Shown: positions 1-64,000 of the stretch, in pieces
Position numbering within the stretch: position 1 is the first letter of the stretch
How the letters are laid out: each line of letters opens with the position of its first letter
Assembly (NCBI GenBank): GCA_905178155.1
Contig: CAJINV010000002.1
Coordinates: 2,378,162 to 2,442,161 of the forward strand
From: Amoebophrya sp. A120
Lineage: Eukaryota > Protista > Dinoflagellata
DNA length: 64,000 nucleotides
Direction: 5' to 3'
Position numbers and translations under genes: made by a program
Notes under the pieces: model-generated
What the model was told of the DNA's origin: nothing
The model's database searches: none
Seen by the model: only the letters and a program-made list of their open reading frames with translations

Positions 1-18
1 AGTATCGTACTAGTATAA

Positions 19-859
19 ACCAGCCATGCTCCGGCTGCCGCCGGAGCGCAAGGCTGTTGGGCCGGGGCAAGACTGTTTGCCGATCGGACCACAACCCCGC
101 GGGCCTATGCACAACGAAACATATTGCGCCGCGCCAGCCCGCAGGACCACTTGCGCGCTTCCCGCGCCTGTGGGCGCTCTGCGCAGGGAGCAGCTGCAAA
201 GAACACCGGGGGCGAACAGAAGCCGCCCGGCGGGAGAGGGTAGCGCGAGAGGGTGGCGCGAGAGGGTGCGCGAGAGGGTGGCGCGAGAGGGTGGCGCGAG
301 AGGGTGCGCGAGAGGGTGGCGCGAGAGGGTGGCGCGAGAGGGTGCGCGAGAGGGTGGCGCGGCAAGGCGCCGAACAAAACAGCTCCGCGAATGGCCTGCA
401 GTGCCAAATATGGGTAGTGCCATGCGGATTCGCGCCCGCTTCTTTGTGTTTTACCCTCTCGCAGACCTCTCGCAGAGCCTCTCTTTGACCTCTTTTGGGG
501 GTCCCCGCTAATAATCCGGCTATACTCGCTGGTAGAGGTCGACAGAGGTGGCCGAGAGGTGGCCAAGAGGGTCCGCGAGAGGTCGCCCCTTATTCGCGCC
601 ACCTCTCGCCACCTCTGTCGACCTCTCGCGCCCCCTCTTTTTGACCTCTCTGCGCCCTCTGTGCCACTTAGGCGGCGCCTAAGGGTGGGCCCTTACTGCG
701 GGCCTTATTCGCGCACCCTCTCGCGGACCCTCTCGAACGGGGTTCCGCGCCACCTCTCCACCTCTGTCGACCTCATTTCTACCTCTGTCGACCTCTTTTT
801 TACCTCTCGGCCACCTCTCTGGGACCCTCTGTCTACCTCTTTTTTCGCATTAATATAAT
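19..859. mobile_element. GC-rich repeat insertion nested in a family B introner
   Basis: Flanked by gtataa (13-18 and 860-865). Hairpin gctccggc/gccggagc at 29-48. Internal 12/13-mer tandem array. Confidence 0.6.
234..360 (+). repeat. Tandem repeat gcgagagggtg(g)c, about 10 copies
   Basis: Seen directly. Degenerate complementary units (cacctctc, ccctctcgc) are scattered over 450-840. Confidence 0.9.
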
Positions 860-987
860 GTATAAGTAATCGCATGACAAATTAGCTCAGCATGACAAAT
901 GGGATTTGTCATGCTGTTTTACCTTGGGATGAAGATTTGTAATGCATGACTGCGATTACTACGAGTGCGATACTTTTGCACAGGATA

Positions 988-3900
988 TACCAGTTAAAAG
1001 CGCAAAACTCAGGCTGCGGGTCCACCTGGTCGCACCGTTTTTTCCTTTTGCACTCGTACGCCAGCGACTTGTCCCGGTTGATGAAGACCCCCCGGCAAAA
1101 TTTGTTTTGCGTAGTGTCCCACGGGTTGATAAGTTTCGGGGCATCCGCGTCAGACAGTGCTAGTTCTCTGGTTTGATGTTTCTTGGAAAGCAGTGTGGCG
1201 GGCGCAGCTTCTTCTGTAATTCCTCCATCTTCCGTGGAGCTTCCAGTCGTCGTTTCTGTTTTGCTCGAAGCAGAGCCTCCTCCCCTCCCCCGTAAAAAAC
1301 ACTTTTGCAATGTCCCGATTACATCTTGACTCTGCCGGATCGCCAAACCCCCCGAATCGCCACTATCATCCTCACAGAAATATTCGTTTTGCACGGCTTC
1401 TAAATCCGCGAACAAATCGTCGATCAACTGCCCCTTCCAGGATTCCACCTTGGCGATGAACTTGTCTTGCTGTTTCGGCGTAGCTAAATGTTCTTTCTCC
1501 ACAATCTCCTCCCCCTCTTTTTCCACTTCCTTCTCCGCCGGACCGCGGTTCAATAGCTCCTGGTACGCGAGTTCCAACTTCTCCTGGTAAGACAAAGTCG
1601 AAGTGGTGGTCGTGGTAGTTGTCGTGGTTGTTGTGTTCATCTGTAGTTCCGCGTCCAGCATTTCCGACGGGTCTTTGATCTCCCTGGGCGTGGTATCGCA
1701 AGAAAAAACTGCTTCACTGTAAACTTGTAAAAATGCAGAAAATGCATCGCAGCAGTGTTTGTGTTGCTACACATGTTGCAAGACAAGTGATTTTTAGCCG
1801 TGTTTTCCCTTGGCATCCTCGCATGGCAAGTTTTCTTCGTCACGTGTAACGAACTTGTGATGCAAAACTTGCAAAATCATCACAGTGAAACACTGTTTTC
1901 GTACGATACGTGGCCAAGGACTCCGTTCCTTCCTCCGTTGTTTTCCGTACCAAAAACCACTTCTGCTTGCAGTCCGGCTGCTGCGCCCCGTATTCTAATT
2001 CGTACATCGCGCACTTCTTTATCCCTGGGGAGACAACCTCATCCAGTCCGTTTCCGCACTTGTAGCCGAGGGTCTTTTCTGGATTGACGAAAACCCCGCT
2101 GCAACCACTCTCGTCCAATAGACATTCGTGCATGAGAGCGCGAATGTTGGTAAAGAGGCTGGGGGCTGTACTGCCGAAGACAAAAGGCTTTTCGCAGTAG
2201 TATTCGCCCGTACTCGCGCCGGTGATGTTCAGTAAAGTTTCCACGTTGGCGAAGGAGGGAAGCTTGGAGGTTAAGTTGTTTGCCGTCACTGTGACGTTGA
2301 TTTGCTGCTGGGGAGAAATACTGGGAGAACTGTCAGGATCGGAGTCAGCTTCTGATGCTTCATCTGGAGACGCTTTATTTTCTGCCGGTTCTGTTCCAGC
2401 TTCCGCCGGTTCCTCTCCCGCCGCAGCGGGCGGGTCTTGCTTGCTCTTCTGGAGTTGCAGAAGTTTCGTGTTTGCTAATGTTCTACTTGATTTTCGTGTA
2501 GTTCTCTTTTTCCTTTCTAACTTTATCGCCTCTTCCCTATCTGCCTGCAGCAAGCTCAGCAATTCCTTTCTCCTTTTTTCCAAAGTGGCCACTTGGAACC
2601 GCAATGTCTCGGTTTTGTTTTGTTGGGCTGCTCCTCCTTGGGCGTCTGTAGGTGACTGTTGATCTGTTTTAATATTTCCTGAAGTTTCGTCATTTTTCGA
2701 AGCTGCAATCGCGGCTTTCTCCGCCTTTTCCCTCCTCTCCGCAGCGGCCTTTCTTGCGCTCTTCACAATGTCGTTCACCGCATCACGAAAACTGGCCCAG
2801 GCTTGCGACTTTTGCAACTCCTTTTCACTTTTTTTATTTGTCGCGAACCCCTTCGCGTCCGGGTCCGAGCCAGAGCCACTATCACCGTCCCCCATAGAAC
2901 TCATCTGCTCCAACTGCCCCGCTAAATCCGGGTTATCGAGCATGATCCCCGGGAGAAGAGTATTCCAAAACTGGTACTGCGCGTTGTGCGGCTCGAGCTT
3001 CGTGCCCGTTTCGGTGTCCAGGAGCACTTGCAGGTTGTTTTCGTCGTAGTCCATGGTTAGAATGGTCGCTTGTTTACTATCTTTGAAAGTTATAGGAGGA
3101 CCACCTGGGTCGTCGGACACCATCGTGAGGATTTTCGGGACTAAGAATTCGAAACCGCGGAATTGTTCGTTGAGATCCAGAGCCGTAGAGGTAGAAATTT
3201 TATCTCCGATATTTTGTCCTGGCTGTATCCTCTGCACCGCCGCCCGGAGAATGACCGTCAAGATGCTGCGCAACCGCGAGACGTGCAACACGATCTCGGT
3301 CGGGGGTTTATTTCCAGTAGTTGGTTCCGCGGTACTTCTTTGCCGATCAGTTTTTCTCGCGGCGAGTAAAGCAGTTGTTATCGGGTCGTCGGTACTCGAA
3401 GCCGATACGTCGCTTATCTCATCTCCTGCATCCTGCTCACCGGATATCGCTGTAGTTTCTGAATCTGAACCACTAGCACTCCTCGTCGCATTACTGACCG
3501 CCGCGGTTGAAGATGACGATGAGCTTTCGTTTCTTCCCATAAACCCGTGCTTTTTCAGATAGTCCTCCATTTTCGTGTAAAAAGGTTGGTACAGCTCCAT
3601 CATTTTACTCCCAATGTTCCGCTCTCCCGCGACAATCATTTGGTGCCGGTGCCGGTACACATGCACGTTGATCACCCGGTGATCTGGGATCGCCGTCGCT
3701 TTCACGGCGGAAAGAACCGAGTTTCGCAGGTGCTCGTTGACGCACGTGTTGAACTGTTCCAGCTGAATCGCTTGCGTGAAAAGGGCTAGTTGCTGCGTAG
3801 AAGAAGATTCTGCTTTACTACTACCAGGAGCAGGCGGGAGATCACGACTGTTTTCTTCTACATCACCCCCTTCCAGGCTGTCCACATCATGATCCTCTTC

Positions 3901-6900
3901 TTCATCAAACCCCGTTATCCGGTAGCAAATGTCCACATCCAAATCCCGCCCAAAGCCGTCGTTCCCCAGCCCCACCCGCGCGAACGCCGACTCGATGGCC
4001 TGCGCGGTGAGTTGTGTGGCCGGAGCGGAGTTCGCGGTGGCACTCCCGTCGATTTTTCGGCTGTACCCGAATAAGGGGTTCGGGTACATAGAATCCGGCG
4101 TGGGAATCAAGCCTGTCAAAGCGTTGCTGCCGCTGAACGTACCGCTTCCGGGAGCGGTTAGTGTACTGGGGAACACCTGACTCGGGTACCAGTCGGTACC
4201 AACCGAAGTTAGTCGCGCTGGCAACCCTTGCACACCGGCGATACTGGGGGGTAAATCCGCGCGAATGGAATCATATGCACTGCAAAAGTATCGTACTAGT
4301 AGTAAGCGCAATACAAATTAACTCAGCATGACAAATGGAATTTGTCATGCTGTTTTGCCTTGTGATGGAGATTTGTAGTGCATGACTGCGATTACTACGA
4401 GTACGATACTTTTGCACAGGATAAGTCCCCGTCGGAGCTGCTGTACGCTTCTTCGGAAAAGGGGCCCGGGAGTTCGTCGAGATCGGCTTTGGAGGTGGAA
4501 ACTGGGGAGAGAAGACCGTCGGTGAAATCGAAATCGGATTTTGAAGCGGTGGAGGATGAGCTAGAGCTTCTGCCTAAGCCTATCTCACTCCCAAATTGCG
4601 TTTGCATCTGCATCTGCAGAAATTGCAAGTACTCCGCGGGTGGTGGCTGGCCTGCAGCTGTCCCTGTTGCACCCACATCACTAGTATCTCCAGATGCGCC
4701 GGCCGACACCGACGCGTCATTTGGTGCTCCTGCACTGCCATCACCATCGCCACTGTTTGTTTTCTCCAGCGTCTCGCTTGCCACCACCGGCTCTTTGTCA
4801 CCGTTGTCATTTTTGGACATCTCCACCCCACAAACCGCCTGACCAATGCGGATTCTAGGACCGCCGGGGTTGTTGAGGGTGCTACTACTTTTCGTGCTGC
4901 CTCTTGATGTGCTCCCACGAAACTCCTGTTGCCTCGCATCAAACATCTGCATCAAAGCTGCTGGCGCGCCAGCAGCTGGATCTTGTTGATTTGTTTCCGG
5001 GAACCCAAAACTCGTTTTCAAAACCGGTTTTGCCGGCTCCAGCTGCAACTATTGAGAGGAAAAATCCTCCCTCCCCATATCGAAAGTGTATGTTTCCGAA
5101 AATTTGTCTTGCTGATTTGAGACCACAAATCACGTCTGTCTTGCAAGAAGACAACTCTACAGGCTCTGCCGCATTATGCAGGCGGTTTGTGATGTTGTTG
5201 GGCCTACAGCATAGACGTTTCTCTTGCTAAGCGCCTAGGCCGAAACCTCTCTACTCAGGCTTCGCAGGAGCTTGTAGTCCTCTACTGCAAGACAAGCCTG
5301 ATTTGTATACGCAAATCCAGCATCAGAAACTTCCGTTTGATATGGGGAGGGGGGATTTTTCCTTGTGATAGCAACCCTAACTTCTTCGACGGAGGTTTTT
5401 TACTTGCTGATCCGTTTTCGTTGTCCCCATTCCCCTTCTCCTGTTGCTCTTGGTAGTGCTGTGACAGAAACTTCTGCATCTCTTCCTGCTTTATTGCCCG
5501 ATCGAAGTTCTTCTCCATAATGGATCGGTGATTCACGTATGCATTGCAAATATGTCAGTCTGGGTCTGGAAGAGAGCGCTTGTTTGGCATGCATGTTTTG
5601 CATGACCCATGATGTCTGTGATGCATGCCCTAGCATCACAGATGTTTTGAGGGCTTCCTCATCCCTAATCCGCATGACAAATGCCCTCGTCTACTCCGCG
5701 TAGCAAGAACAGGACTTCGCTTGCTGCTCATGCAATACAGTTGTTCTTTGGAATCGAAACGCAGCATCACAAGTTGTATCCTTCCAGACCCAGACATATT
5801 TGCAATGCATATCACGTGCGTGCTGTTGATTTGGTTTTCGTTTTGGGTAAAATCAATCATCAGATCCCCCGTGATTATGACCTGCAAAAGTATCGTATTC
5901 GTATAAATGCATTACAAATTTCCTCAGCATGAGAAATAAAATTTGTAATGCGGATCCGGATTTGCCTTGAGAACAAGATTTGTAATGCATGATTGCAATA
6001 CGAGTGCGATACTTTTGCACAGGATAGTGATCTCGTCCGCACGATGTACGTCGTAGGAGCAGAAATCCACGATCGCACGGGGCTGTCGATTTGTAGCACT
6101 GCGCTGCATCGGTTCTCTCTGTACAAAAGCGTCCAACGCAAATTGCACCGCGAGAGAGATTATCAAATGTAAAAATGTCTGGGTCTGGAAAAGTGTAGAC
6201 TTGTCATGCACATTTTCCATGACCCATGAGGTCTGGAATGCGGGACTTAGCATGACAGACTCTGCGGAGTCTCTGTCATGTCTATCCTGCATGAGAAACT
6301 CCCTTCCAACTTGGTCAAAAGTGTACAGCTTTTGGCACTCATGCAACAGAGATTTTTGCATGCTTCAGATTTACCATGACAAGTTGCAATCTTCCAGACA
6401 TCCAGACATTTTTGCAATTCATAGAGATTTTTTCGCAGAAAATCCTCCTGTCGTTCGGTGCGTATCCTGATTAAAAACGTCCCCACACCAGAGTCAAGAT
6501 GGGGACTTTGCAACACAAACCTAGGAGTTTTGGGAATCACGCATGACAAGTTTCAGTCCGTAAGGTAGTGCAAGTTAGCAAGGAAAGCCGCATCACAAAT
6601 CGATCTGCTGATCCTGTTTACAGCATTACAAGTTCCCAAACACGATTGAAAATGCCTGTCATGGGGTTGCGCATCACAACTATTCCTGTCATGGCAAATC
6701 TGCATGACAACTCTGGGGTGGGGACGTTTTTACTCAGGATAGTGCGTCAGCGAGGTTCTGGATTTTCAGGGATAAAGCCCCCGTGAGCCGGTTTTTCCCG
6801 TCGTTTTTTGTGCATTGGTTCAGTTTCCTCTCCAGCGTAATAGCGATTCGGTCAATCGCGGCCTTGCGTTGGTTTTCCAGTCGTTCTTGCTCGGGGGTCA

Positions 6901-9900
6901 GGTAGTTGGTGGGGGTGATATTGTCCTGGTCTGACCCTGCCGGCGTCGCGCTCGTGCTTGTGGTAGGTGGTGGAGGGAAAAATATTTTCAACGACCGGGT
7001 GTCGTGTGGTGTTAGTGAGTCTTGCACTGACTTTGTCAACGCGCTTCAGGAAATAAGTACTTCAGCATGATAAAGGCGAAACCCAACTTCTCTTCTCCGC
7101 CGCACTGAATCTGCAAATTTTTGCAACACATGCAGGTGAAATATTAAACGTGCAACTAGTACTAACCCGCCTGTTGAACAAATTTTCCCATCCCATACAG
7201 GTGTCGTGAAATTCAACAGCAGTGCCTGCGCTGTCACCTGATCGGAGTTCACAGGCATTAACGGGAGCTGCACCGGATACTCCTTCGCTGTTGTTGACTT
7301 TTCTTCTCCTTGTGCACTGGTGTCACTTCCTCCCGCATCCTCTTTTTCACGTCCCAACATCTTCGTCCTCGTGGTCTCCTCTCGCAGATTCCGCAGTGCT
7401 TCGGTGAAGGAAAGGAGCGCTTGCGGTTCTTTATTCGGGTTAATATTTGGTACCGATGGTCGTACTCTTGATGCAACCTGCGAAGCAGTAGAATCTGATG
7501 CACCTTTCATCGATGCAGTATGAATTTCAGAAGCTTTATCCCCCACGCCCGCACTTGCTGGTATCGTGGTTTTCGTCCTCTTCGCAGCCAATTTTGCGCC
7601 TGCCTTCGGATCTGACACAGCAGCGTCCGTTGGTTGTGGTGGTATTTCGTTGCAAACAAACTCCCCTACCGGTGACACGGCGGAAGAATATGTGCTGTCT
7701 ACCGACGTTTTTGAGCTGTTAGTAATCTTCTCTGCCGTTGCGTTAGTACTGTCGGTGTCGCCCGACGCGCTACCACCGGTACTGCTACCCAAAACATCAG
7801 TATTCTGTGGTTTAAAGCTGCTACGGTCGAAAAACTGTTGTCTTTTTCTCACCGCGTTTTCCTCCAATTTTGCGTTTACCAGCGCCGGTTGCATATCAAA
7901 TGTAAAAATGTCTGGGCCTGGAAACTTGTGATGCTGGGTGGCGTCTCATGATGAGGCCACAAGTGCTGGCTCAGCATGACAAGTTTCTGAGCTTCTAGGT
8001 GTTGCCTACTTATTCTGCATGACAAACTGCGTTTCTGCATCACAGAAAAATGGAGCTCCTGGGTAACGTGCATGACAGACTTAAGAGTCATGCCAGACAA
8101 GCATGACAAACATGCACTCTTCCAGACCCAGACATTTTTGCATTTGATATTGCAACTTCTCGAACAACTCCTCATCCTCAGCACTCGCGGCTCCGTCTTG
8201 CGAGGAGTAGCTGAAGTCCATCCTTTCCTCCAGCTCGCAAGCGCTGCAGACCGCCGCGCTCTTCTGCCAACAAACGTTCTTCGCCCGTTCCGGGCGCAGG
8301 CCGCATATGAAATGTAAAAATGTCTGGGTCTGGAAGATTGCAACTTGTCATGCTAAATTTTTTTTTTTTTTGCTAGGCTTCTCGCGTGTCGATTTGAAAT
8401 TCTTTTGATTTTTCTTTTGGTTTTCTTTTGATTTTTCTTTTGATTTTTCTTTTCATTTTTCTTTTGATTTTTCTTTTGATTTTTCTCTTGATTTTTCTCT
8501 TGATTTTTCTTTTAATTTTTCTTTTGATTTTTCTTTTTGTTGATATTTTCTTTTGATTTTTTGGTATTTCTTTTCGTTTTTCCTTTGTCTCGACACACAA
8601 AAAGCGGTGGGCGATTCACGAAGAAGTGCGCGGGTGTGCTCGGCGTTCCCGTGGCCTTAGGCCCTACCTTTTGGATAAAAGCTGCCGCTCCTCCTCCCCA
8701 CGTCTCTTCCTTTCGCCATTGCCATCACTCCATTCATGGCCGACAGTTCCACTTCTCGCACGTCATCTGCATCCCTCCACAGAGATTTGTGAATCCTCTT
8801 CGGCCTGCGCAGTAGCAACGAAAAAGCAGTGTGCCAACCTGGCGGAGATTTACGCACTGACGCCTGCCCCCACATCTTGTTCTTGGAAGGATGTCCAATA
8901 TTTACACTTACATCTTGATATCATGGAAAACATAGAGAAATCAACTATTTATTTCTATGTTGGTAAAAATGAAAGCGGAATAGAATAGAAAGCAAACTAT
9001 ACTACTTTGGTGCTGCAGGCAACTAATAGTTCTGAAGACAGGGCAGAAAAAAGCTCTTCTGTAGTGCAAGGAGGTCAGTACTAAGTAACTTTCCTACAAA
9101 ATCCTTGGAAATTCAACTACTCAGGACTATATACGACTCATTTTTTTTGCTCAACAAGTACTACCTTTTCACTACTACCACCTCCTTTCTCCATCTCAGC
9201 CTGTCCCTGTTTTTATTTCTTTTTGAATGGAAAGTTACGAGCAACAGGCAAAAAAACGCCTGTATTTAGGACGAACAGCAAACTACGAACCTGTCTGCGA
9301 AGTTACCAGGTGCTACGATGACGAATTCACGAATGACGACTTATTTTCTTTCGCGCGACGATTAGGCTGAGGAATGGGTCTGCTTAAAAATACCAGGTCA
9401 CTGTCCATGTGTTTACTAGTACCAGGGGACCAGGCAGCCACGTAGCTCATTAGGTACAAGGTTACTCTATGCCGCTGATTGGTACAGTTCTATTCTAAAT
9501 CTTCAGCGATGAGCAAACGCTCCACCTAGGTCTGGCTTTATGGGGTTCCCTTTATATTGGTGCACGTTGCGGGCTTCGCAGCAGGGACCTGTTGTTTTAT
9601 GCATTTTTGATTTTCATTGAGTTGTTTGCTCGAGGATGTTATCTGACTTAGCATCATGATCTCAACTACCATCTATATGTTCATCATACACAAGCAGGCA
9701 CTAACAAAAAACACGAACCTCCGATCTGCAAATCTATTGCCATCAAATAGCTCCATAGTCATTATTTTTATATACCTGGTATCTTCCTTTCTTCACTTTC
9801 CCCCTCCTCAGCCCAGCTTTTCGCACGATGTAGTACTGGTCGTTTTTCTTTTTCTTTTGGGATCTCGTCGCTTCATAAACAAAAAGGAGAGGATTTGATT

Positions 9901-12900
9901 TGCAGAGAACCTGGGGAATTTAATTTTTTGTGACTCAAGGCATCTAGTGGCGCGTCAATCAAGATACTTCATCGGAATGGCATCAGTAAATACCTTCAAA
10001 TTGCTCATTCTATTTAGTTTCTTATACACATTGTCGATCTTGGTGTGCTGCTTTGGAATTCGTTCCATTGTGTGCCCTATTTCATCGACACATCCCTTCA
10101 CCCTATCTCGAAAGAACTCATGCGTTAACTTTGCCTCTTCGTCCACTATAAGACGCATGATTTTCTGCGGCTGTTTTAGTAAGCTGCGCCCGAACTTGTC
10201 ATGCTAAATCTGCAGCATGCAAAAATCTGTGTTGCATGATTACCAAAAGTCGCCCAATTTTGACCAAGTCGGGAGGTAGTTTCTCATGCAGGATAGGCAT
10301 TAGAAAGCTCTCGCAGAATCTGTCATGCTAGCTCCGGCATTCCAGACCTCATGGGTCATGGAAAAACTGCATGACAAATCGCGCATTCTTCCAGACCCAG
10401 ACATTTTTACATTTGATACCGCAGTAGTCAAACGCAAACAGGTCGAAGTCGTTGGAGTCGTAGGGGTTGCAACCGGAGCTGACGTCGTCGAGGGTGTGGA
10501 AATACTCGTCGCTGCATATGCAATACAAATTTCCCGTACATGTACAAAATGCATCACAAATTTCACCAACCTAGAAGAAGTTACTTGTCATGCTGAAGAG
10601 GTTTGAAGGAAAAGTTTGTCATGCGGAAGCCACATTTGTACGTCGTGTACAGGAAATTTACTGTGGATACTGCAGGCGAGATCTTCCTCCGGTTTGTTGA
10701 AATACCGGTACACAATGCTGTCGTACATGAAACTGCACACGTCGTAGCGTTATGCAGTGCAAATCTGTCTGGGTTTGGAATCCTGTGATGCTGATTTGCT
10801 GCTGATTGCAACGCTTGCCACGGCAGCCAAGCATGACAAGTTTTTGAAACGCTTCCTGATGTCTAGCACGCATTACAAATTGCGTTTTCGCATGGAAAAG
10901 GAAGTGGCTCTTCTGCTGCTCACGCAACACAGATTTTGATTTTCTAGGAATGCTGCAAAATACGCATATACAAGTTCAAGTTCCACTTTTCCAGACCCCG
11001 ACATATTTGCAGTTGATAAGCGTAGGCAATCCCGGCCCCAGTTCGAGCACTGCACCGACTTGGTGTCGCTGGCGATGCAGCCCTGTCCGCACCGGCCCAT
11101 ACAGGAGTTGTCGGAGAGAATCGTGTCGATTGCGAAATCCTGCACGTCCACGTCTTCGGGAGCAAGAAACTTTGTAGTCATCATGGCCCTTCTGCTCTCC
11201 TCCTGTTGCAAAAGAACCACGCCTTCAAGTTGATCACCACGACCTCCTGGCGCTCTTGTTGTATTAGCCGACGAGGACGAGACGCTGCTATCAAGTGTAA
11301 AAATGTCTGGGTCTGGAAGATTCTGACACTTGTCATGCACGTTTTGCATGAGCCATGATGTCTGTAATGCATACCCTGGCAATACAGATTTCTTCAGGGC
11401 TTCTTGATGCCTATTCCGCATGACAAACGCCTTCTCAGCGTAGCAAAAATTGCATTCCCTTTGGTACTCATGCAATACAGGTTTTTTTGGAATCCAACTG
11501 CAGCATCACAAGTTGCAACCTTCCAGACCCAGACACTTTTACAGTTGATAGCTACTTGTCGTCGTAGAATTGTTCGCACTGTCGTCTTATCAAATGCAAA
11601 AATGTCTGGGTCTGGAAGAATTTGTCGTGCAGATTGTACATGACATGTGACGTCTGTAATGCATAACCTCGCATAACAGATTTTTAGCGGGCTTTCTGAT
11701 GCCTATCCCGCATGAGAAGTACCCTCTCCATGTAGCACAAACTGGACCCCTCTTGCTGGTCATGCAATACAGATTTTTTTAGAATGCAGAGACAGCATCA
11801 CAAGTTGCAATCTTCCAGACCCAGACATTTTTGCATTTGATACGTCTGTGTCTATCTCCGCGCCCGCATCCGCCTCCGTCGGTGCCGGGGTTGTGATGCT
11901 GCCATTATCGTCATGTTCTTGGCGCGGCGGGGGAAAAAACTTCTTCGCGACTTGCACCGAGTTCACGGGCACCTCTTCCAGGCCCCAGCACTCTATCCTG
12001 AGAAAAAAGTGTTACAGTTTGTTACAGACTCTGATGGAAGACAGGCAAGACAGACGACCTTTGTCATGCAGGAAATGCTTGCCAGCTTCATTTCATTCGT
12101 GTTTTCCCTTATAGTCTGCGCATCACAGGTTTTCTTTGCCATGCCGGCGACTTTGTGATGGAGAAAGAACTCCAACAAATGTGTAACTGTAACACTTTCA
12201 TTTTCCTGTGATACACTCTCCGGCCCGCATGGTGACCTCGTAGCAGATTTCCGGGCAAGAGCGTCGAGATGAAGCAGCAGCGTCTTCTTGCTTTGCATCG
12301 GAAAGATCCTCCGTCGTGGTTCCACTTGGCGTGGAGGTCGTTTTCCCGAGTTTTCGCCCCGTTTCGATGCACGGCCCGTTGAGTTCGCCCAGGTGGGGCA
12401 GGCCCAACTCCGGCCCGGTGAATTGGACCACGTACTCCCGGTCATTCTCGTAAAAGTCCGTGAAAGGTTCTAACCGCTCGATGCTGCACACGGAGTTGGT
12501 GTTGGTATGTGATGCAGTGGTTCCATAATTATTTTGATCACCATCCCCAGATGAAAACTCGTTTTCTGAAGAGGAAGAACCCCCAGATTTGTTGTAGCTT
12601 GCCGGGATCAGAATCGACTCTGACGCAGAAGTACCGGAGGTGGTGGAGAAGAAACCACTAGGTGCTTGTTGCGCATTTGAACTTCTTCTTGATCTTCGAA
12701 ACCCGTCGAACAAGAACCCGCTGCTTCTGGTTTTTCTACTTCTCTTGTTCGAGTACGTGTGATCACCTCCAGCACCCCCATCAGCGAAGCTTCGTGCTTG
12801 CTGCAAAAGGCTCGTCTGTTCACCGTTCTGTTGTCCGCCTGCTTCTTCCGTGGCTACATCGTCGTTTTCTAACTCTTCTGCTGCTGGGTATGCGTTGGCA

Positions 12901-28361: not shown

Positions 28362-28366
<5 letters not shown>

Positions 28367-28396: not shown

Positions 28397-28398
<2 letters not shown>

Positions 28399-50900: not shown

Positions 50901-53900
50901 GGTGTCTACCACCGGGAATAAACAAGCGGCACTGTCCACGAGAAACCCGACGCACAAGTCCGCGTCGAGCGTCAGCAGCGCTCGCAGATTCTCGAACACA
51001 AATCGGGTACACAGAGAAGTGGTTGTTGTTGTAGACCACGCCCTCGCCGCGCCATCCACGACACCAGCAGATGTTGTTGACCCGCCTTTGGTCAGCCGCC
51101 GGAGTAGCGAGAACACCCCGGTGACGGCCTGGTACTGCAACAGAACCTCCAGGGCGGGTTGAAACTGCTGTTTCTTCTCGTAAAGCAGCGCCAAACACTC
51201 CGCGGTCACCTGCGTGAAGTGCTGTGAGAAAATGTTGTCGCTTGTTGATGTTGCAGCTGTAGTACCAGAAACTGTAGTACTTTGAGTCTTGTCATGTGCT
51301 CCTGTTTTGTTCCCACGACCGCTCTGGTCCGGCTGCTTCTGCTGCTTATGCCGTAATAAACTAGCACTGCCGTGCTGCTCTAACTGGTTCTGCAGTAATA
51401 GCTGCAGCAAGTCGGTAGAATAAAGCTCGTCCACTTGCTCAACATTTTCTGCGCCATTCGGACCGCTTGCAACACCGACTTTTGACGCGCCGTTGGACTT
51501 AACCGTCAATCCCCAGGTAGAGAGCACCTCCAGCAGGGCCTTCGGGTAGGAAATCAGTCTTTGTAACACCATGTCGCACATGACCCGGTCCAGCTTCTCT
51601 GGATTGATCAAGGCTGCAACGCGGTGGATGCAGTTTCGCTCGAGGAAAATTTCCGTAATGGCTTGCTCCCAATTCTCCTCCGCACTAGCGGCCTCCTCGT
51701 AAATGTTTTGCGCGGTTGAAGATTCTGCTTCCTCTTCAAGATTTGTATTCACTGCCTGATTCAGATTCGACGTCGTGGTGCACAACATGACCAGCTGCTG
51801 CGCCCGTTCTTCGTTTTCGTTGGTGCCGCACCCGGCGAGGACCTGCTTCACCGCCTGGATTAGAACGCGGGACAGGCTCGGGTGAGATTCCTTCGCGAGC
51901 AGCAAGATCGCTTCCTCGTATCGGTTCTGCGCTTTTTCGCACAAGAAAAGCGCGTCTTCGAGTACGTCCCGGCGATGCACCCGGATGATGTCAGTCCCGC
52001 TTGTTCTGCTCGTCGTTTCAAAAGCAGTTGATGTTCTTTTCGATGATAAACCACCAAGAGTTGTCACCAGATCTGCAGCTTCTGTGTCGGTCACAAAAAT
52101 CACGCCGCAGGAAAACTCCTGCAGATGTGATTCCGGTGCGTCGTGGTGAATTATATTCGCAGCAGCTGCTCCCGTCTGGTCGTTCATCGTTCCATCAAAC
52201 ACCTGCTCGGATTCGTTCACGCAATACAGCACATTCACGTGGTGGCTCGTGCTCCCAGCAGAGTATTTTTTCGCGAGGTAGTTGTTCTGCTGCAACATCA
52301 TTTCCCTTGACCTTAACTCGGCGTCGCTGTGTCTCTCCTTGCAGAACAGCTTATCGGTGTGCAAGATACTCCGCGTTCGCAGGCTTACTAAATGATGGTT
52401 GACTTGATGCTCCTGGATTATAAACAGCGGGGAGCAGTCCTCGACGAGTGTTGTTCCAGCTCCTGCTGCTGCTTTTTGCGATGATCGCGTCGCCGAAACT
52501 GCTGGCTTATGCACGACTTGGCGTCCTCGTGAAGATGAAAAGGGACTGCTGCTGCTTTCTTCCACTTCCATCGAGCTTGCAGGAAACACTCCACGGTCCG
52601 CCTCCGCGCCATTCGTCTCGGCACGAGGTGGTGGACCACCCCTCACGGCACCAGTGGAGTCGCCCAGAATCTTGACGCAAGGCCGCTGCCACGGTGGGGG
52701 CAGAAGCGCAGTTGTTGTCCTCGTGTCTTTGAATTGCGGGTCCTCTACATCTGTTTTTCTGGTACTAGAACCGACTCCGTAAACGACTTCATCCGCCGTC
52801 AAAACCAGCAAATCGCTCCGGACCCGCGGATCCGGCGCCAGCCCGACGATCTTGCTAGAGTAGAAAGGCAACGACGGAGAGGACAACACTGAAGAGGACA
52901 TCACACACTGTGCCAAATAATTCGCCGTCAGACTCATGTTCACAACCACCTCGCAGAAGTAGCTCACCGCTCCCCCGGACGACGACCCGTTCTGCCCGTT
53001 CAGATGTATTACAGTGAAAAATGCCCCGACCCCCAGAGTTGCAAGCATTTGTGATGCGAAGTTTCCAAATGAAAACTTTTTGTCATGCATGAAAGGAATA
53101 CGAATCTTTGTGATGCAGAGTCTAGGCGCATATAGCATTGCTTGCATGACAAGCGCCGCTCTTGCTGGGATCTTTTGCAATACAAATGTTCGCTATTCAC
53201 GATTGGGAATCTGTGATGCAGCTGGATGCAAGAGGGCGCATGTTTCACCTGGAAAGGTTTGCAATACAAATGCTCTCAAGTTCGGGGATGGGGGCATTTT
53301 TCATTGTAATAAGATGCGGGTTCTGTTCGCGGATTTTCGCCACTTTCAACTCCAAATTTTCGCCAATGCACAAAGTCCACCCGAAATCCAGCCAGAGGAG
53401 CACGGTGGGCGGGGGGGTTGATGGTGGAGGTGCTCCTGTTGGGACCTGTTGTGTAGATGAAGAGCTTGTTCCCCCCGGAACTGGTCCTGCTCCTGCTCCT
53501 CCTGTCAATGGGATAAACGCGATCTTCTGCATGGTCTTCGTGTGCAGCATATGCAATGCAAAAGCATCGTACTCGTGTAATATTAAACGCATTACAAATT
53601 ATATCCTCAGCATGAGAAAGTAAATTTGTAGTGCTGATTTACCTCAAGAAAAAAATTTGCAATGCATGATTGCAATACGAGTACGATACTTTTGCACAGG
53701 ATCCAGCAGTTTCACGCCCTTCTCCGTGGTCCAGGCCGCGATCTGCAGTTGGCCCCACTTGCAACTGCTTTGCCGTGCGTAGCTATTGAACACCGTTTTG
53801 GTGGTTTCTTGGTCGAACGAATTATGTCGGGCGGGGGTTGAATTTGGTTTTGGATTGTCCACATTGATCATATTATGCTTTTTGTTCATCTTACTGTAGA

Positions 53901-55961
53901 TCGTATCCAACACCTCCACCGTCGGATTCCGCACGGAGTGTTTCTTGCACAGCAAAACCTCGACTTTCGATTTGGTTCCGGTGGTCAAAACAAACCTGGG
54001 AAAAGCCCGGTCAATCATCGGGTCGGCGGCGCAGGAGAGGCACAGCCCAATCACGTCAATTTTCCAGAGCTGAATCGAGGGTTGCTCCACGTTCAAAACG
54101 ATGCACTCGTACAGCCCGGCGACAATCAGAAACTTGTGGTTCACGGAGAGGCAGGAAACCTCCTGCTCCAGGATCCTTCGAGAAAGGGAGGATGAGCTCG
54201 TCGTCGTAGAAGGGGTGGTTATCGTTATGGTTTTGATATTATGGTTGTGATCACCTTTATTCTGATGCATGTTGCTGTCCAGCACCGGTGACGCCCCCGC
54301 CGCGGGAGATGAAGAAGCATCACCATAGACAGCAGCTCCTTCGTGTACTAGTTCCCCTGTAGTTCCTGTCACCGACCCTACTAGACCGCCACGCGGAGAC
54401 GAGGCGGTTGACGCGGACACGACGCTCGCAGCAGTAGAGGCCGCGTCGTGCTGCGAGAGTACTTCCCCTTGTGCTGATATAATGTGGTGTCCACGTGCAA
54501 TAGAAACAATTGATGTCCCTGTAGTATTTATCCCGACCCCTTGCTCCGACGCGGTTGTGGTTTTCCAAATCGAATCCACGAAGTCGGACGGCACCTATCC
54601 TGAGTAAAAACGTACCCACCCCAGAGTTGTCATGCAGATTTGCCATGACAGGAACATTTGTGATGCGCAACCCCATGAGAGGCATTTCCAATCGTGTTTT
54701 GGAATTTGTGATGCTGTAAACAGGATCAGCAGGTCGATTTGTGACGCGGCTTTCCTTGCTAACTTGCACTACCTTACGGACTGAAACTTGTCATGCGTGA
54801 CTCACAAAACTCCTAGGTTTGTGTTGCAAAATCTCCATCCTGACTCTGGTGTGGGTACGTTTTTACTCAGGATAGCACCGGCGTTTGGTTTTGCGAGGAA
54901 CTGGAACTCTGCTGGGACGCGGTTTCGGCGTTATAAGCGCCCTATCCTGTGTAAAAACGTCCCCACCCCAGAGTTGTCATGCAAATCTGCATGCTGAAAA
55001 TGTTTCTCATGCGGAGCCACATGAGAAGCATTTTCCAGGTGTGTTCTGGAATTTGTCATGCTCCAATCGGCATGATATAGTAGATCTGTGATGCTGCTGA
55101 GCTAGCTCAAACAGCACTACACTACGAGCCCAAATTTGTCATGCAAAACGGCCAAAACTTGTGGATTTGTCTAGCCGAGTCCCGATCTTGACTATGGGGT
55201 GGGGACGTTTTTACATAGGATACGCCCTGCTGCTGGTTCTTATTTGGGACGTCTTGCAGCACATGATCAGCTGGAGGCGTGGAAGACGACTCCAGGTTAG
55301 CAGTGCCCAGCCTTGTCTGGCGCTCTACTTGATCCTCGTCCTGCGCAAGCACTACATTGCCTGCCAGGTCACCACCACTCCCGACGACCCCAGCACTCCC
55401 AACCGTTGGGAAAAAAACTTGGTGCTCCCAGAGCATGCGAAACCGGGAGTGGGTTAGCAAGTGCTTCACGTTTTTGCTCGTGCGCTGGGAAGTTTGCGAA
55501 GTAGATGCGGCTGTTGTAGTAGTGGAGGTGGGAACAGCAGCTGCATTACTGGTGATTGTCGGTGTAATATTTTTATCCCGCTCCAAAACCACCGGACTTG
55601 CGCCCGGAATGAGCGACGTGTCTTCAAACAGCTGCACATGCCCCGAAGCGCGACCGACCGCGACGAAGGCTTTACCTCCCAGGCTCACGCAGGAAACGTA
55701 ATCAGGGCTGTTGAACAAAGGTCGCGGAGAAGTTGTGAGGTTTGTTCCCTGCCGATGCTCCTCCCGCTGCTGTTGTTGTGTTTCCGCAGCTGTAGGGCTG
55801 CTGGAAGCTGCGCCAGACGTGGCAAGTCGTATCTCGTTATCGGCATCAGTATCGTCTACACTTGGTCTCGCAATGTCCTTGATGCGCAGGTAATCCACAC
55901 GAGGCAGCGGGTCTTTCTCCCCCGCCTGGCTGTGTGCAGGGGGGGGTCGGGCGACGGACAT
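47982..55961 (-). CDS. VPS41: Vacuolar protein sorting 41 homologue (HOPS subunit; WD40 plus clathrin heavy-chain repeat)
   Basis: VSCVSLGGKAFVAVGRASGHVQLF, WGQLQIAAWTTEKGVKLLD, RRDVLEDALFL...YEEAILL, ECLALLYEKKQQFQPAL and YIEHAIGLCKEHELYDALVFLLSKAG...DVEKAILF...ELWE match Vps41 architecture. Eight introners. Last exon uncertain. Confidence 0.8.
48748..48956. mobile_element. Family C introner
   Basis: C-type TIR, opposite orientation to 1694-1908; TSD actgc. Confidence 0.9.
49012..49277. mobile_element. Family K introner
   Basis: Homologous to 31610-31871; TSD cagtt/cagtc. Confidence 0.85.
49693..49957. mobile_element. Family A introner
   Basis: A-type TIR; TSD ttccc/ctccc. Confidence 0.85.
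50598..50758. mobile_element. Family B introner
   Basis: B-type TIR; TSD tgacc. Confidence 0.9.
53007..53311. mobile_element. Family L introner
   Basis: tattacagtgaaaaatgcccc...ggggcatttttcattgtaata; TSD agatg. Confidence 0.9.
53550..53703. mobile_element. Family B introner
   Basis: B-type TIR; right end ATC instead of ATA; TSD cagca. Confidence 0.88.
54596..54874. mobile_element. Family E introner (reverse complement of 6463-6741)
   Basis: E-type TIR; TSD gcacc. Confidence 0.9.
54943..55222. mobile_element. Family E introner
   Basis: E-type TIR; TSD cgccc. Confidence 0.9.
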
Positions 55962-56539
55962 GTTGTAGTTTTGTGACGATTTACAGTTCCTCTTGTGCAA
56001 GAACTACTTTAGAGGTTTGGGACCGCGATTGGAAGTTTCGATATCTCTCAACCACCATTTTAAAACCGGAGAAGCGTCCTCCGTTCTTCTGTCTAGACCA
56101 AAGTTGGTGATAAAGATTTTCTGCCTAAGTAGATCTTCGACGCAGCTCGCTCCAAGCAAGGAGCGACGCACTTGATAAGATATCTGTATAGGAACTTTCG
56201 CAGTGTTTGGTCGGGCGAAAGGAATTGAAAACGTCCTAGATGAGCCACTGATGGTGGAAGAACACAAGCACACTTTCGCAAAAAATCAGTGCGCCCGGAG
56301 ATGGGAGTGCCTATTTTTGGTGCACTGTGGTAACGGAAACGAACCAGGTTTCATCTTGCAGTTGCGAGAATGGAACTTCAAACATGACCTCGCAACACAA
56401 AAAATACACTATGCGGCGACGTCGCCTCTTTTTTCATCTTCTACGGTGCGCAATAGTGCCTGGTAAGGAGGAGGACAAAATTACCCTCTGCAATGGATGC
56501 GAGAGCGAGTACAAAGGACCATAAACGAAGTAAGTAGCT

Positions 56540-59498: not shown

Positions 59499-60445
59499 TT
59501 ACTCTTCTTCCGGATTCCAGGGCGGCAGATTGTCTTCGATCGCACCTGGTGGGATTGCGATTGGATTTGGATTGCACAAAAATAGCATTTGTTCGTGATC
59601 TTCATCCTCAGTCATGCATCCGCGACGGAAAAAAACTGTGTACTCAACAAATGCATGACAAAGACCAGAGAAACAAAACATACCCAAGATTTTTGGTGCG
59701 TCGCAGCCGAGGACCTCGCCCACTTGCTTGCCACCCATGTAGAAAAGAAACATTGGCTTTGCCTTTGCTTTGCACGCCAGGTATTTTTCTTCAATTGCTG
59801 GCACAACGGATAAATCCATCTGGTTTTTTTTTTAAAAAATTTGTCATGCGTACAACTTGCAGGTAAAGTCTATTGATATAGTGGAAACGCTACGTTACCT
59901 TTCATGCAGATGCAGATCGAGACATCAAATGTGATATCGTGTACCATGTAAAACTGCCCTCGCAGTTCCCAAAAATACACTATGCATTGCAAACGTGTCA
60001 GAGTCAGGAGGTCACGGCCAGATTCGATATTTAGTGGCATTTTCAGTACTGAGAGATCGTGCAAGACAAACGCAGCTCTCTGGGGTGAGACATAGATTGT
60101 AAAGCTAAGCGTAGTTCTGCACATATCAAATCTCGTAAAATCTCAAGCGCCCTGACAACTTCGCGATGGATATCCGTGTTTGCTGCCAAGGACTTGAATG
60201 TTGGTTCCATCTGTGCGCAGGGTCCGTACCATTGGTGGTACCTGATCATTTTTTTGTTGTGTCTTCATCTTCAATAGGCTTCTGGATGACAAAGCCGATG
60301 TCTCATGCGTCAATAATGCATCACAAATTCCCAGAAACAAAAAGTACACGTCCAGCACGATTAGCCTCTTCTCGCTGGCAATGACTGACTCGAAGTCTTC
60401 CTGCGTGGCGATGGCCTTGATGAGCTTTACCTCCTTGCCCGCCAT
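59499..60445 (-). CDS. Thioredoxin-like protein of the NME8/TXNDC3 / outer-arm dynein light-chain type
   Basis: Spliced: MAGKEVKLIKAI...LIVLDVYHQWYGPC...KPMFLFYMGGKQVGEVLGCDAPKIL...AIEDNL. Introns at 60242-60347 and about 59545-59683 are GT-AG. Confidence 0.8.
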
Positions 60446-61063
60446 TGTGGACGGAGTAGGAGTTCAAATTTAAAAGAGAAAAATTTATCGGCTGTCTTAG
60501 CCCCTAGCTTTGGCTATCGAATAGATGCTTCTCAGAAGATACGTGAACAAGAGTTTACGTGGCACAGCGTTGCGTTGAGCCGATCTAGTACAAACGAGAG
60601 AGAGGAGCTGCGGTAGAGAATTTCAAAGTGCAACACCGTGAAAGACATGGGATTAGAGTCGACAAAGACGCTATCGACCCGATGTTTTGTTCACTCATCT
60701 ATCTCTCCTCTCCGGGACGTCCCGTTCCTTCTCGCGCTCGTTTATTTATAGGGGTTTTCGCTCTCTCTATCTGCAGTTCGATTCGCAACTCTGCAACCGA
60801 GAATCAGTTTTCCTCGGACTCATGTTCGTCGGGGAGCTTAGTAGACCATCAAGATGGAGATGCACAAGACCATGCGTCATGGTGCTGACGTACTAGAAAA
60901 ATGAAGTCAAAATATCAGCCGACAGAAGACCGCATCTACGAAACCCGAACGCGAACACTCGAAAGCAGCAGGCTAGCCTAGGCGACGCAAGAAAGTCTTT
61001 CACTTCATTTTCGAGAGGGAGACAGAGCTCCCGAGGGACTACTTCGAGGGCTCATAAAGAGAT

Positions 61064-62110
61064 CTAGCAAGCAGCCTGCCCGCGGCCGGGCCCGTGCGGC
61101 ACCTGCGCGACCGACCGGAACGCCGCACGGCGAATCGCCCAGGCCGCGCGGGCGACCGATGTAAGGCTCTGGGGCCGAGGGGCTACGCAGGCGGCCAGCA
61201 ACTGCAGGAGGCACAGCAAGGGCCGCCGGAGAGCAGCAGGCGCATGAAGGGCGGGGGGGAGCAGCGGGCGCAATGCCAGCACCCTCCAACGCGCCGAGGC
61301 CGGCGGCCCCGCCCGCAGAAGCGGCAAAACTGCCGAGGGCCGCCCCGCCCCGGGCGCCCACTTTTGGGCCTCGCCCGGACGCCTGCGGCGCGCCCCGGAC
61401 CCTGCCGGCCCGAGGAGCCGGGGGCGCCCAAAGCGGTCGCCCAACTTTGAAACAAAGGGAGGCCGGGGGGGCCTGCGTTGCCGGCGGCGCGGTCTGTGGT
61501 CTCGCAGTTTTCCCCAGCACACTGCGCCGCCGGCCGGCAACGCTTCGCAGCAAAATTTTTGCAGCGGGGCCCCCCCCCGATGCACACCCGGGGAGTCTGA
61601 GGGGCGGGAAACCCGACGCACACCCAAAAGGCCCCCCGGCCCCCCGGCCATCTTGCTCGCCCCCCCCCTGCTCCTGGGTCTGCGCGCGCTCTGCGCGCGA
61701 AGCAAGGGGCCTCCATTCCCAGCGGCACGCCCGCCGCTGTATAGAAACAATTGGCCACGCCGCCCGCGCCGCAGGTACACGACACGGCCGAGCACCCGCG
61801 CGGCGGGCCTTCGGCGGGGGCGCGCACTCTTCCGCGGGCATCTGCCGCGCGACTCGGCGCGGCCGGCTGGAAACCGCCAGGCAGGCAACACCAAACGCGC
61901 CCCCTTCGCATCAGCTCGCGCGTGTGTCGCGGCGCACCTTTCTTGTCCAGCGCCAACAAAACCCGCGGCAGGTTCACACGGCGACCGCTACCTTGAACTG
62001 GAACAGCCACCAGCTCGCGGGCAGCTGGGGGGGGGCCAGTTCCTCTTGGTTTCCCACCCCCTGCCGGCTAGGGCGGGACTCGGATGCCCCAGAGCCTTTT
62101 CCTCGGTCAC
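61064..62110. repeat. Intergenic very GC-rich island, possible non-autonomous element
   Basis: Abrupt compositional shift. On the minus strand, a GC hairpin (gcccggccgcgggc) lies about 10 nt before CTAG at 61064-61067. Confidence 0.4.
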
Positions 62111-62349
62111 AATTTTACGCAGTAGCTTCATGAGCCTCTGTTCATGTGGAACGCGGCATTTACTTGGCCCAAAACAACGATTAGAACACAGATAGTCTAG
62201 GTCTCCTGCGCACTGCTGCTGCATGCGTACAGGCGTTTGCCGCACACTTTTCAAAGCACTTACATGCGTTATTTGCTGTCGCTTTCTACTTTCAGCATAC
62301 TTTTCGTTTTGGAGCTAGATTCTCTTTTCCGATGAATCAACAAACCCCA

Positions 62350-64000
62350 CTAATCCATCGCATTCACATCTTCGTAAGAACTCAACGGAATTTTTTCATG
62401 ACTACTCGCCTTCCCTCCCCCACCACCAGTACCTCCTACGACGGAAGCCTGCTTCACAAGCTTCTCCTTCTCTTTCACGACCGGAGGTGCGGCTCTAGTA
62501 TTACAACTTGTTCCGGTCGTGTCTTCTTCACTTTTAGAAGTTGACATTTGTACTCCCTTAGCGGTTGAATCCGAACCATCACCAACCTTCGCGTTCTCCA
62601 CGTCGTCCATATCGATTCCCCGTTCCTTCGCAACCTCTTTGATCCACTCGTCCATGGATTTTTTGTCGTCGCCAAACTGTTCGTATGCATTGCAAACATG
62701 TCGGCGTCTGGAAATATTGCGAGATTTGTCGTGCTAGTCTGGCATTTGACTCTGAGCTCTGTATTGCGTGGCCACAAAGTAGAGTTCCACTGGTCTAATA
62801 TTTATCATGCATCAACGCAGTTTCTCATGCGGACTACACAACACAGAGACACGAAAAAATCTGTCATGCTTGGCGGTGAATTAGTACAGTGTGCTTACCA
62901 AATATAGCCGCCGGGGCGGAGGTAGTGAGGTTGTGGGCGTTTTCTTGCCGGCCATCGCCTTGGCCGCGGCCTTGCTTTTTTTGGGCTCGCCATGCCGCCG
63001 TGAGTAACGTTAGGCCGCACGGTATGGCGGCCGCTCGATAAACGTCGCAGCCTTTGGCAAATCTCCGAAATTCCTTTCCGAAAGCTAGCCCCCATGCTAT
63101 GGAGCCGATCCGGGCGCCACGGGGGGCGCCCAAAAAGCGAAGGAAAATCGGGCCCATAGCATGCGGATTGGCTTTGCGCGTCCGGGGCGCTTTTTCTTTT
63201 TCGCGTTTCTATATTTCCCTCCGGCGCTTTTTGCAAAGCTTCCCAGGCTCTGAAACCGGCGAAAAGGCGGCCGCTTTCGCGGCCGCCCAAAATGCTCCAA
63301 AATCGCGGCCGTGCCATGCTGTTTCGCTGTTCTGACTTTGGGCGAGTTTTTTGCGCGCCCCTTTTTGGGCGGCCCAAACCGCCAGAAACCAAGGCGGTGG
63401 GCGCCGCAGAAGGGCGCCCCTTTTGCCGGCTCCCCTGCGTCGTTTTATCAAGTGCGAATCGATAGTTTTCGACCGGGCTTGTTTGACTTCAAAGCCCCGG
63501 CCGCTTAATAATTGGAAATCTTTTATGTCAAAGAACGCTTCCGGCCGCTTGAAAACTGCCGGTCGTTTTTCAGGGTATATGTCAAAAAAACTCCCCGGTT
63601 AGAACCGTTCGGTGACCTCACTACATACTATTCGCTGACCTGCATTACAAGTTTCCAGGCGCCGACCACATATTTGCAATGCATATTTCGTTTTTCAACA
63701 AATGCTCGTTTTCCGGATCCTCCTCCAACCGCGGGATGGCGATCATGTCCTGCAGTCTCTGCATCTCCTCCTTCGTTTCCTTGGTGAAAATCGTCTCCAT
63801 CTGCTGTGTATGCATTACAAAAGCATCGCACTAGCACTACGTAGAAATCGCATGACAAATTCTGTGAAGAACAAAAGTGGGATTTGTAATGCTGAATTAG
63901 GTACAGAAACTAGATTTGTCATGCGCGGCTGCAATTTATACGTAGTACAATACTTCTGCAATGCATACTGCGTCGCGATCTGCTTCCACTGGCCCTTGTA
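62350..64000 (-). CDS. 3' part of an unknown acidic protein gene (5' end beyond window)
   Basis: QMETIFTKETKEEMQRLQDMIAIPRLEEDPENEHLLKNE joins in frame to QFGDDKKSMDEWIKEV after removing two introners. Confidence 0.65.
62684..63685. mobile_element. Family A introner enlarged by a nested insertion
   Basis: tatgcattgcaaacatgtc...catatttgcaatgcata; TSD gttcg/tttcg; frame restored. Confidence 0.85.
62898..63628 (-). mobile_element. Helentron/HINE-like non-autonomous element nested in an introner
   Basis: Asymmetric sub-terminal inverted repeat gtagtgaggt (62922-62931) / acctcactac (63615-63624), plus a small GC palindrome at 62908-62919. Boundaries approximate. Confidence 0.55.
63809..63967. 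mobile_element. Family B introner (divergent)
   Basis: B-type TIR; TSD ctgtg/ctgcg. Confidence 0.85.

Follow-up and report, generated by a model that had tools for sequence, protein, structure and literature searches.

How do genes stay readable when most of them are broken up by transposon-like sequences that lack the borders of ordinary introns? The question is raised by a stretch of 64,000 nucleotides (nt) of the dinoflagellate Amoebophrya sp. A120 (assembly GCA_905178155.1, contig CAJINV010000002.1, positions 2,378,162 to 2,442,161 of the forward strand), here called the window. An initial annotation, made from the sequence alone, had described about 65 terminal inverted repeat elements with 5-bp target site duplications interrupting nine of eleven genes. 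These elements are real: 71 were found, spread over ten of twelve hand-drawn gene spans. They are non-autonomous copies of DNA transposons, introners of the Amoebophrya type, which are kept in DNA-like data and cut from RNA-like data. The cut is defined by the element ends, and neither by the duplication nor by any dinucleotide.

Removal of the elements in a single register

Sequencing runs were compared with the window over positions 10000–29700 (X1, X5 and others) and 33300–50100 (X1 to X4); X1 to X4 are RNA-like, and X5 is a DNA-like run that we take to be DNA. Over the first region, 13 elements are gone from the X1 contigs, whose shortfall against the genome equals the sum of the element lengths with 5 nt added for each. 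The X1 contig of gene 2 is short by 935 nt between 14063 and 16525 (915 + 4 × 5), and that of the methyltransferase-like gene by 886 nt (866 + 4 × 5) and 1108 nt (1083 + 5 × 5). The eight X5 pieces listed show no differences from the window at a depth of 38–58, and all run into or through elements; one X5 contig covers 19000–22339 unbroken, where the X1 contig departs from the genome at 20017. Over the second region, all 15 joints listed, of 19 found, skip the element length plus 5 nt. One more joint, 39569–40672 in X3, has 13 foreign letters that look like the sequence of another copy.

The joints also bound the position of the cut, since the two repeat copies of older elements are no longer identical. 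Two of the 15 pin it exactly, four bound it from below, five from above and four are uninformative, with one common value for the register. In transcript orientation the intron reads N-TAY...ATA-NNNN, beginning 1 nt before TAY and ending 4 nt past ATA; the upstream repeat copy contributes four letters to the joined exons, and the downstream copy its last one. Precise excision of the piggyBac type was considered and rejected, as it would leave each strand with a complete repeat copy and not with four letters plus one.

The duplication is not needed for removal. Three introns that have lost it (38893 and 48422 from joints, 45114 as deduced from contig pieces) fit the identical register, and it is therefore the ends that set the cut. 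The family-3 copies at 37616 and 39680 point in opposite directions, and the mirror register is excluded for each; the direction of the cut therefore comes from the transcript and not from the element. Under this register, 67 introns give 42 dinucleotide pairs, with GT-AG once, in agreement with the earlier view that no fixed GT-AG or AT-AC pair marks the borders. The first intron base is G in 23, A in 18, C in 16 and T in 10 of them, AG ends four of the 67, and the first exon base is unbiased. As a set, the 67 introns do not show the GT or GC donor and AG acceptor of U2-type introns. Introns of the U12 type have an RTATCCTT donor, a strong branch box and minor small nuclear RNAs (snRNAs). This type was also rejected, since only +2 to +4 are fixed in the window introns and +5 onward varies; the available text of Farhat et al. 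2021 (PMC7789003) reports no minor snRNAs.

Transcripts retaining the elements, or junctions at GT-AG sites unrelated to them, had been named as grounds for rejecting intron removal. Neither was seen: the RNA-like contigs lack the elements, and their junctions are tied to the element ends.

Support from open frames, an ortholog and a second assembly

Removal of each element with 5 nt joins the coding fragments into frames of 397–1924 amino acids (aa; for example 658, 938 and 1924). This bears out the claim that taking away an element with one repeat restores the frame: long frames were opened, the motifs FDLVFIDSDH and FDWISR were rebuilt and a TPR_Vps41 match was obtained. Hydrolase_4 and TPR_Vps41 are the Pfam matches above cut-off. 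About 34 junctions rest on reads and the remainder on frames. A stop-codon test of the register within the window gave identical frames for all six registers tried.

Searched with an exon of the serine hydrolase gene, the sole match among longer proteins was a protein of Amoebophrya sp. A25, 61% identical. The hydrolase model, with nine elements and one GT-AG intron removed, encodes 408 aa and aligns without gaps to the A25 protein across all junctions. The alignment score barely separates the registers, being 1108 for registers 1 and 2 and 1102–1105 for the others.

Scanning metagenome data for one end pattern gave 134 loci (620 kb), and the 80 loci listed come from one assembly. The fetched loci hold about 400 elements, with exact repeats in 322 of 404. 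In this second assembly, frames lengthen only upon removal of +5 or the equivalent +2 (60 of the 134 loci, 346 elements), the totals being 48.4k and 48.6k aa for +5 and +2 vs about 37k otherwise. Junction stops arise there only if none or one of the upstream repeat letters is kept (4 informative cases of 27). Orthologous or empty sites were sought in the fetched loci as well; among the matches listed, only element sequence matched.

Structure, families and origin of the elements

A strict scan (TAT..ATA ends, 100–450 nt, an exact 5-bp direct repeat and an inverted-repeat match of at least 11 of 20) found 35 elements in the window vs none in each of 20 dinucleotide shuffles. A scan with an end library followed by curation gave 64 elements, and seven decayed ones supplied by RNA joints and the ortholog complete the 71. 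Six repeats that had been named individually were located at 1694, 5050, 5538, 6161, 14959 and 18775. Among the 64 curated elements the 5-bp duplication is exact in 40, and the per-base repeat match is 0.90 at 5 bp vs 0.22–0.32 at 2–4 and 6–9 bp. The duplicated bases mirror exon composition with no preference beyond it; a position bias of the mismatches was looked for and no clear one was seen.

Element lengths are 145–376 nt apart from two enlarged copies, 8306–10418 (2113 nt) and 62684–63685 (1002 nt); the lower end of the range first given, 145–330 nt, stands and its upper end does not. On both sides the ends read TAT, loose positions 4–8, then G and AAA. Each position of the terminal TAT is kept in 62–64 of the 64 curated elements and the A at 11–13 in 57–63, counting both ends. 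Element 25908 begins with TGT (ACA at the transcript 3′ end), and its removal fits the summed length; 53550–53703 has GAT, a variant end, at the transcript 5′ end.

Clustering of 67 elements gave nine families with several members plus 14 singletons. The figure of about 12 families put forward for the window was reached upon addition of the second-assembly loci, which gave 12 families with at least nine members each. The motif TTGT[ACG]ATGC has 139 matches in 19.1 kb of element DNA vs 14 in 44.9 kb outside and is present in 58 of the 67 elements, in nearly all families. It occurs in both orientations, is common to otherwise unrelated families and is a candidate protein-binding site.

All 71 elements lie within the hand-drawn coding spans (30.7 kb of exon) and none in the 13.3 kb of non-coding sequence, where about 21 were expected. 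The spans were drawn after removal of the elements, one lower end (29020) being assumed, and the count is thus partly circular; the restriction suggests targeted insertion.

The initial annotation also proposed a search for a transposase flanked by the same ends. None was found in the window or the 134 loci when 142 long frames were scanned for motifs and three were searched against Pfam, the frames tested in the long element copies had no Pfam match, and an Rfam search of the window gave no matches. The available text of Gozashti 2025 (PMC12130899) describes a family of A120 that has inverted repeats together with integrase-like frames. According to the parts of Kojima 2023 (PMC10045372) at hand, IS3EU/GingerRoot transposons have TA..TA termini and duplications usually of 6 bp, and IS481EU elements of Trichomonas end in TNT..AYA, with IS481EU duplications of about 4, 15 and 25 bp. 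The window elements share the TA..TA termini of IS3EU/GingerRoot but differ from both groups in duplicating 5 bp, with no transposase seen. Membership in IS3EU was rejected on the exact 6-bp duplication, found in 0 of 64 elements.

Genes and their elements

Coordinates are collected in Table 1. The junctions of gene 1 rest on frames open after removal, without read joints; its frame is open across 8306–10418, and X1 contig 1 has a length that would allow this removal, without proving it. The insert inside this element, at 8359–10192, opens with a run of T and low-complexity sequence. Its 81-aa frame (9955–10200) has no Pfam match and blastn found no copy of the insert in the fetched loci, one of which has a similar low-complexity insert (L042:10903–11398). 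The GC-rich insert at 62860–63650, inside the other enlarged copy, matches loci L042 and L043 over 280 nt at 82% and is thus a repeat of its own.

In the hydrolase gene, 18512–19028 holds a nested pair, the young element sitting in the first bases (5′ end) of the older intron. Removal of the young element rebuilds the older 5′ end, and a one-step cut yields the identical exon junction; the outcome of removal is supported by the alignment with A25. An earlier division of 19277–20015 into two elements, one of them 19277–19762, was wrong: comparison with the ortholog brought to light an overlooked exon together with a GT-AG intron. Two assignments are weak in Pfam: the methyltransferase-like gene (Methyltransf_24, E 0.16, one exon) and the thioredoxin-like gene (Thioredoxin, E 0.019).

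In gene 5, joint 33414–33583 was found in four runs and an X1 piece stops at 29294. Its frame is broken at 29640–29800 by element-like remnants, probably another decayed intron. A coding segment of this gene is tandemly duplicated (31926–32010 and 32379–32540), with the element 31975–32280 in one copy only. Two long frames are free of elements: 56543–58510, a rhomboid protein, and 45663–47180, into which X3 contig 12 continues from gene 7. GC-rich stretches with short repeats at 240–830, 35000–36100 and 60900–62200 are unlike the rest of the window and had no match in the fetched loci save 31 nt.

Table 1 Coordinates of the genes, elements and selected introns of the window
Feature	Position	Strand	Remarks
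Exactly pinned intron	36886..37222	-	Joint 36885-37223, no slide; repeat copies differ at positions 1, 2, 5
Decayed intron, identical register	38889..39185	-	Joint 38888-39186, no slide; no duplication left
Gene 1 span	912..13215	-	14 elements; candidate GT-AG intron 7031-7198; broken element ends at 987
Gene 1 elements, first half	1694-1908, 4274-4423, 5050-5370, 5538-5811, 5876-6026, 6161-6423, 6463-6741	-	
Gene 1 elements, second half	7894-8149, 8306-10418, 10517-10669, 10751-11018, 11289-11550, 11588-11842, 11994-12213	-	
Family-0 element, predicted 2.1-kb intron	8306..10418	-	Split by ~1.83-kb insert; identical 5-bp repeat at both outer ends
Gene 2	14189..16281	-	4 elements: 14648-14904, 14959-15243, 15519-15677, 15753-15966
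Serine hydrolase gene	17006..20631	-	9 elements; GT-AG intron 19600-19763; Pfam Hydrolase_4
Hydrolase elements, lower part	17198-17523, 17689-17935, 17981-18233, 18282-18490	-	
Hydrolase elements, upper part	18516-~18770 (old), 18775-19025 (young), 19070-19242, 19277-19542, 19804-20015	-	
Methyltransferase-like gene	22169..28193	-	12 elements; 1140-aa open frame
Methyltransferase-like elements, first half	22257-22514, 22848-23150, 23191-23345, 23669-23818, 24836-25097, 25135-25385	-	
Methyltransferase-like elements, second half	25445-25659, 25720-25864, 25908-26117, 26963-27160, 27377-27525, 27599-27862	-	
Gene 5 span	29020..34365	-	6 elements; lower end hand-set, open frame shown only from 29661
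Gene 5 elements	29300-29551, 30836-31044, 31610-31871, 31975-32280, 32598-32919, 33419-33581	-	
Gene 6	36748..41603	-	10 elements; 658-aa frame; 10/10 joints listed in X1, X3, X4
Gene 6 elements, first half	36890-37221, 37286-37572, 37616-37919, 37973-38254, 38453-38700	-	
Gene 6 elements, second half	38893-39184, 39347-39627, 39680-39992, 40104-40388, 40451-40704	-	
Gene 7	42886..45757	-	4 elements; 556-aa frame; X3 contig 12 piece ends and lengths
Gene 7 elements	42937-43247, 43295-43549, 44484-44790, 45114-45489	-	Last without duplication
Vps41-like gene	47985..55964	-	9 elements; Pfam TPR_Vps41; 1924-aa frame; first four joints in 4 runs
Vps41-like elements, first part	48422-48704, 48748-48956, 49012-49277, 49693-49957, 50598-50758	-	Duplication lost in 48422-48704
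Vps41-like elements, second part	53007-53311, 53550-53703, 54596-54874, 54943-55222	-	
Thioredoxin-like gene	59880..60446	-	Decayed element 59981-60172; candidate GT-AG intron 60242-60347; frame restored
Gene 12, cut by window end	62353..64000	-	62684-63685 (GC-rich insert inside), 63809-63967

Comparison with known intron and elimination systems

The end signature of these elements was already published in 2021. In the available text of Farhat et al. (PMC7789003), A120 introners start with TAT, seven loose bases and then AAA, have direct repeats of 3–5 nt, are about 240 nt long, fall into many families, come without a reported transposase and are removed in RNA-seq; 29,850 repeated introns are counted in A120, with splice sites variable or unknown. 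The window elements agree in the inverted repeat of TAT, loose bases and AAA, in a border repeat within that range (5 bp, with identical copies in 40 of 64), in removal without GT-AG (15 joints from the presumed RNA) and in forming repeated families without coding capacity. Their description as non-canonical Amoebophrya introns that are removed with precision stands. The A25 match of the hydrolase agrees with the genus, and the end signature points to A120 or a near strain. What sets the window elements apart from the published account is a duplication of strictly 5 bp and a single register, −1/+4, independent of orientation and duplication.

Nonconventional introns of euglenids follow N3-CDG...CHG-N5-6, with a purine starting the exon and with circles reported (Nomura et al. 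2025, PMC12501133); in the parts of that paper and of a review (PMC11282704) at hand they are thought non-spliceosomal, with unknown machinery and a suspected origin from miniature inverted-repeat transposable elements (MITEs). The window introns work like these, with complementary terminal triplets at fixed free spacers, inverted repeats and slidable direct repeats, and are not members of the class: their pattern is N1-TAY...ATA-N4, no exon base rule is seen and the lineage is unrelated. In Fritillaria borealis, MITE-derived introns prefer AG-AC or AG-AT, U1 is kept and the U2 spliceosome was shown to act (PMC11282704; bioRxiv 2025.08.15.670264, available parts), a precedent for spliceosomal removal of MITE-derived non-canonical introns. 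The window introns differ in having no preferred dinucleotides and in a host for which U1 snRNA is reported missing. Internal eliminated sequences (IESs) of ciliates are likewise short transposon-derived inserts removed precisely from coding sequence, but they leave the somatic DNA, whereas the window elements are kept in X5 and both assemblies and their cut follows the transcript.

How the introns may be removed

These introns probably obey a splicing code without a fixed terminal base, in which a machine reads UAU...AUA and measures 1 and 4 nt outward, cancelling the duplication. That this machine is an adapted major spliceosome we hold to have an even chance of being correct. On such an account a DDE transposase would copy the elements and produce the 5-bp duplication, which removal at −1/+4 cancels, as the contigs show; because 1 + 4 equals the duplication, a new insertion would leave no scar. 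The 5′ N-UAY may act as an ordinary donor in which +1 is no longer constrained, U+2, A+3 and Y+4 lying against U6 without U1; the acceptor may be fixed at a measured distance of 4 nt past AUA, the A at −7 being a possible branch point; and the paired ends may hold both splice sites together.

What counts for the spliceosome is that the three GT-AG introns found begin with GTATTG, GTATGG and GTACTT, that is, with N-TAY. T stands at +2 in each of the nine commonest A120 motifs in Table S4 of Farhat et al. 2021 (PMC7789003), which is what the register predicts; in the same source the nine A25 motifs all start with TT and A25 repeats with TTA, so that T+2 and A+3 would recur in A25 should its introns begin at that point. 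U1 snRNA and snRNP27 were not found according to the available text of that paper, the remaining spliceosome being nearly complete, and loss of SNRNP27K goes with U at +4 in yeasts (PMC10581693, in part). TAC stands at ten 5′ ends vs one 3′ end among 291 (p 0.012, one of many comparisons). G-U pairs were not in excess over A-C in the end stems (67:68, 141:149, 100:95), a test of low power, as end differences are largely at family level and copies lie both ways.

Several points weigh against removal by the spliceosome as proposed. G+1, A−2 and G−1 normally dock the 3′ splice site, and all three are free in these introns. Just three canonical introns were available for comparison, one backed by the ortholog and two by frame, and the element finder required TAT-like ends and is biased to them. 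The pattern of conservation (1–3 and 9–13 kept, 4–8 loose) fits the needs of a transposase equally well, and symmetric ends with fixed spacers resemble, by analogy, the Euglena code, thought to be non-spliceosomal. All element-bearing genes lie on the minus strand. The data of X1 to X4 are contigs from one sample that we presume to be RNA, none of the runs found to contain this sequence, among eleven listed, being recorded as RNA, and the labelled RNA run X9 gave 78 partial reads, all on element sequence and probably of another strain, with no unique sequence covered. Fritillaria still keeps its AG-AC and AG-AT borders.

A separate RNA system, in which a structure-guided endonuclease and a ligase would read the paired UAU/AUA and cut at −1/+4, is conceivable, and we lean against it. 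It would share the logic of the Euglena introns (complementary triplets, fixed free spacers and inner pairing, in the available accounts); the terminal nucleotides are entirely free, most ends fold into a terminal stem, with the ends brought together in seven of nine folded, and old introns keep pairing at 1–3 and 11–13 (0.88–1.0, n = 25). But the stems lack a G-U bias, the pair-breaking 5′ TAC is commoner than the pair-keeping 3′ variant (10 vs 1), 38893 and 45114 leave their last triplets unpaired in the predicted fold, and the +2T/+3A register common to the local GT-AG introns would be a coincidence. The proposal of a dedicated end-recognising system is right in that the ends set the cut and too strong in separating it from the spliceosome. 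A third possibility is that a protein derived from a transposase recognises the element ends, or the internal motif, in DNA or in the growing transcript and directs either RNA machinery to the sites during transcription. This would account for the enrichment of TTGT[ACG]ATGC and the nearly symmetric conservation of the ends (246/4858 vs 271/4840 changes). We consider it improbable, as the exact motif is missing from nine of the 67 elements, including the spliced 36890, 37973, 39347, 40104, 48422 and 49012, a crude motif scan of the 134 loci gave no transposase, and Farhat et al. found none in A120, as far as the available text goes.

Programmed DNA elimination, also raised in the initial annotation, would cut the elements from the somatic genome as in ciliates, the element-free contigs then deriving from edited DNA. 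Ends and duplication are transposon-like, the RNA nature of X1 to X4 is a guess, and for the first region, where DNA-like runs were included, 15 joints were listed, with 2801 more, in a table filled with repeat chimeras, so that rare element-free DNA forms could exist. Yet X5 holds element-exon boundaries at even depth, the window and the second assembly both keep the elements, and, whichever way an element points, the register goes with the direction of the transcript. DDE transposases cut flush with the element end, and neither cut here is flush. A weaker point is that X1 to X4 contigs stop near gene ends, 47325–47885 being without cover in any of these runs. Elimination from DNA is therefore very unlikely. 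As for pseudogenes full of ordinary MITEs, or ordinary GT-AG junctions, the density of the inserts is all that speaks for them; spliced contigs, the gap-free A25 alignment and the single GT-AG among 67 introns refute this explanation, and we give it practically no weight.

Implications for Amoebophrya introns

While the elements belong to a known system, the fixed register is likely a new rule. It did not appear in the available parts of the literature searched, including PMC12005148, PMC9860276, PMC11453091, PMC12621601 and bioRxiv 2026.07.09.736142, a search that left out Figs 3 and S19–S25 of Farhat et al. and Roy et al. 2023 (Curr Biol), which may bear on it. A single register replaces borders described as variable or unknown, could serve to re-annotate tens of thousands of introns and tells where branch points or circle junctions should lie. 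That 1 + 4 equals the duplication would explain why these transposons are tolerated in coding sequence; if this is true, an insertion at any site and in either orientation would be removed without a scar. If removal is spliceosomal, Amoebophrya would have a spliceosome that needs neither G+1 nor AG and is free of both terminal dinucleotides. If it is not, a second, independently evolved Euglena-like pathway would act on tens of thousands of introns.

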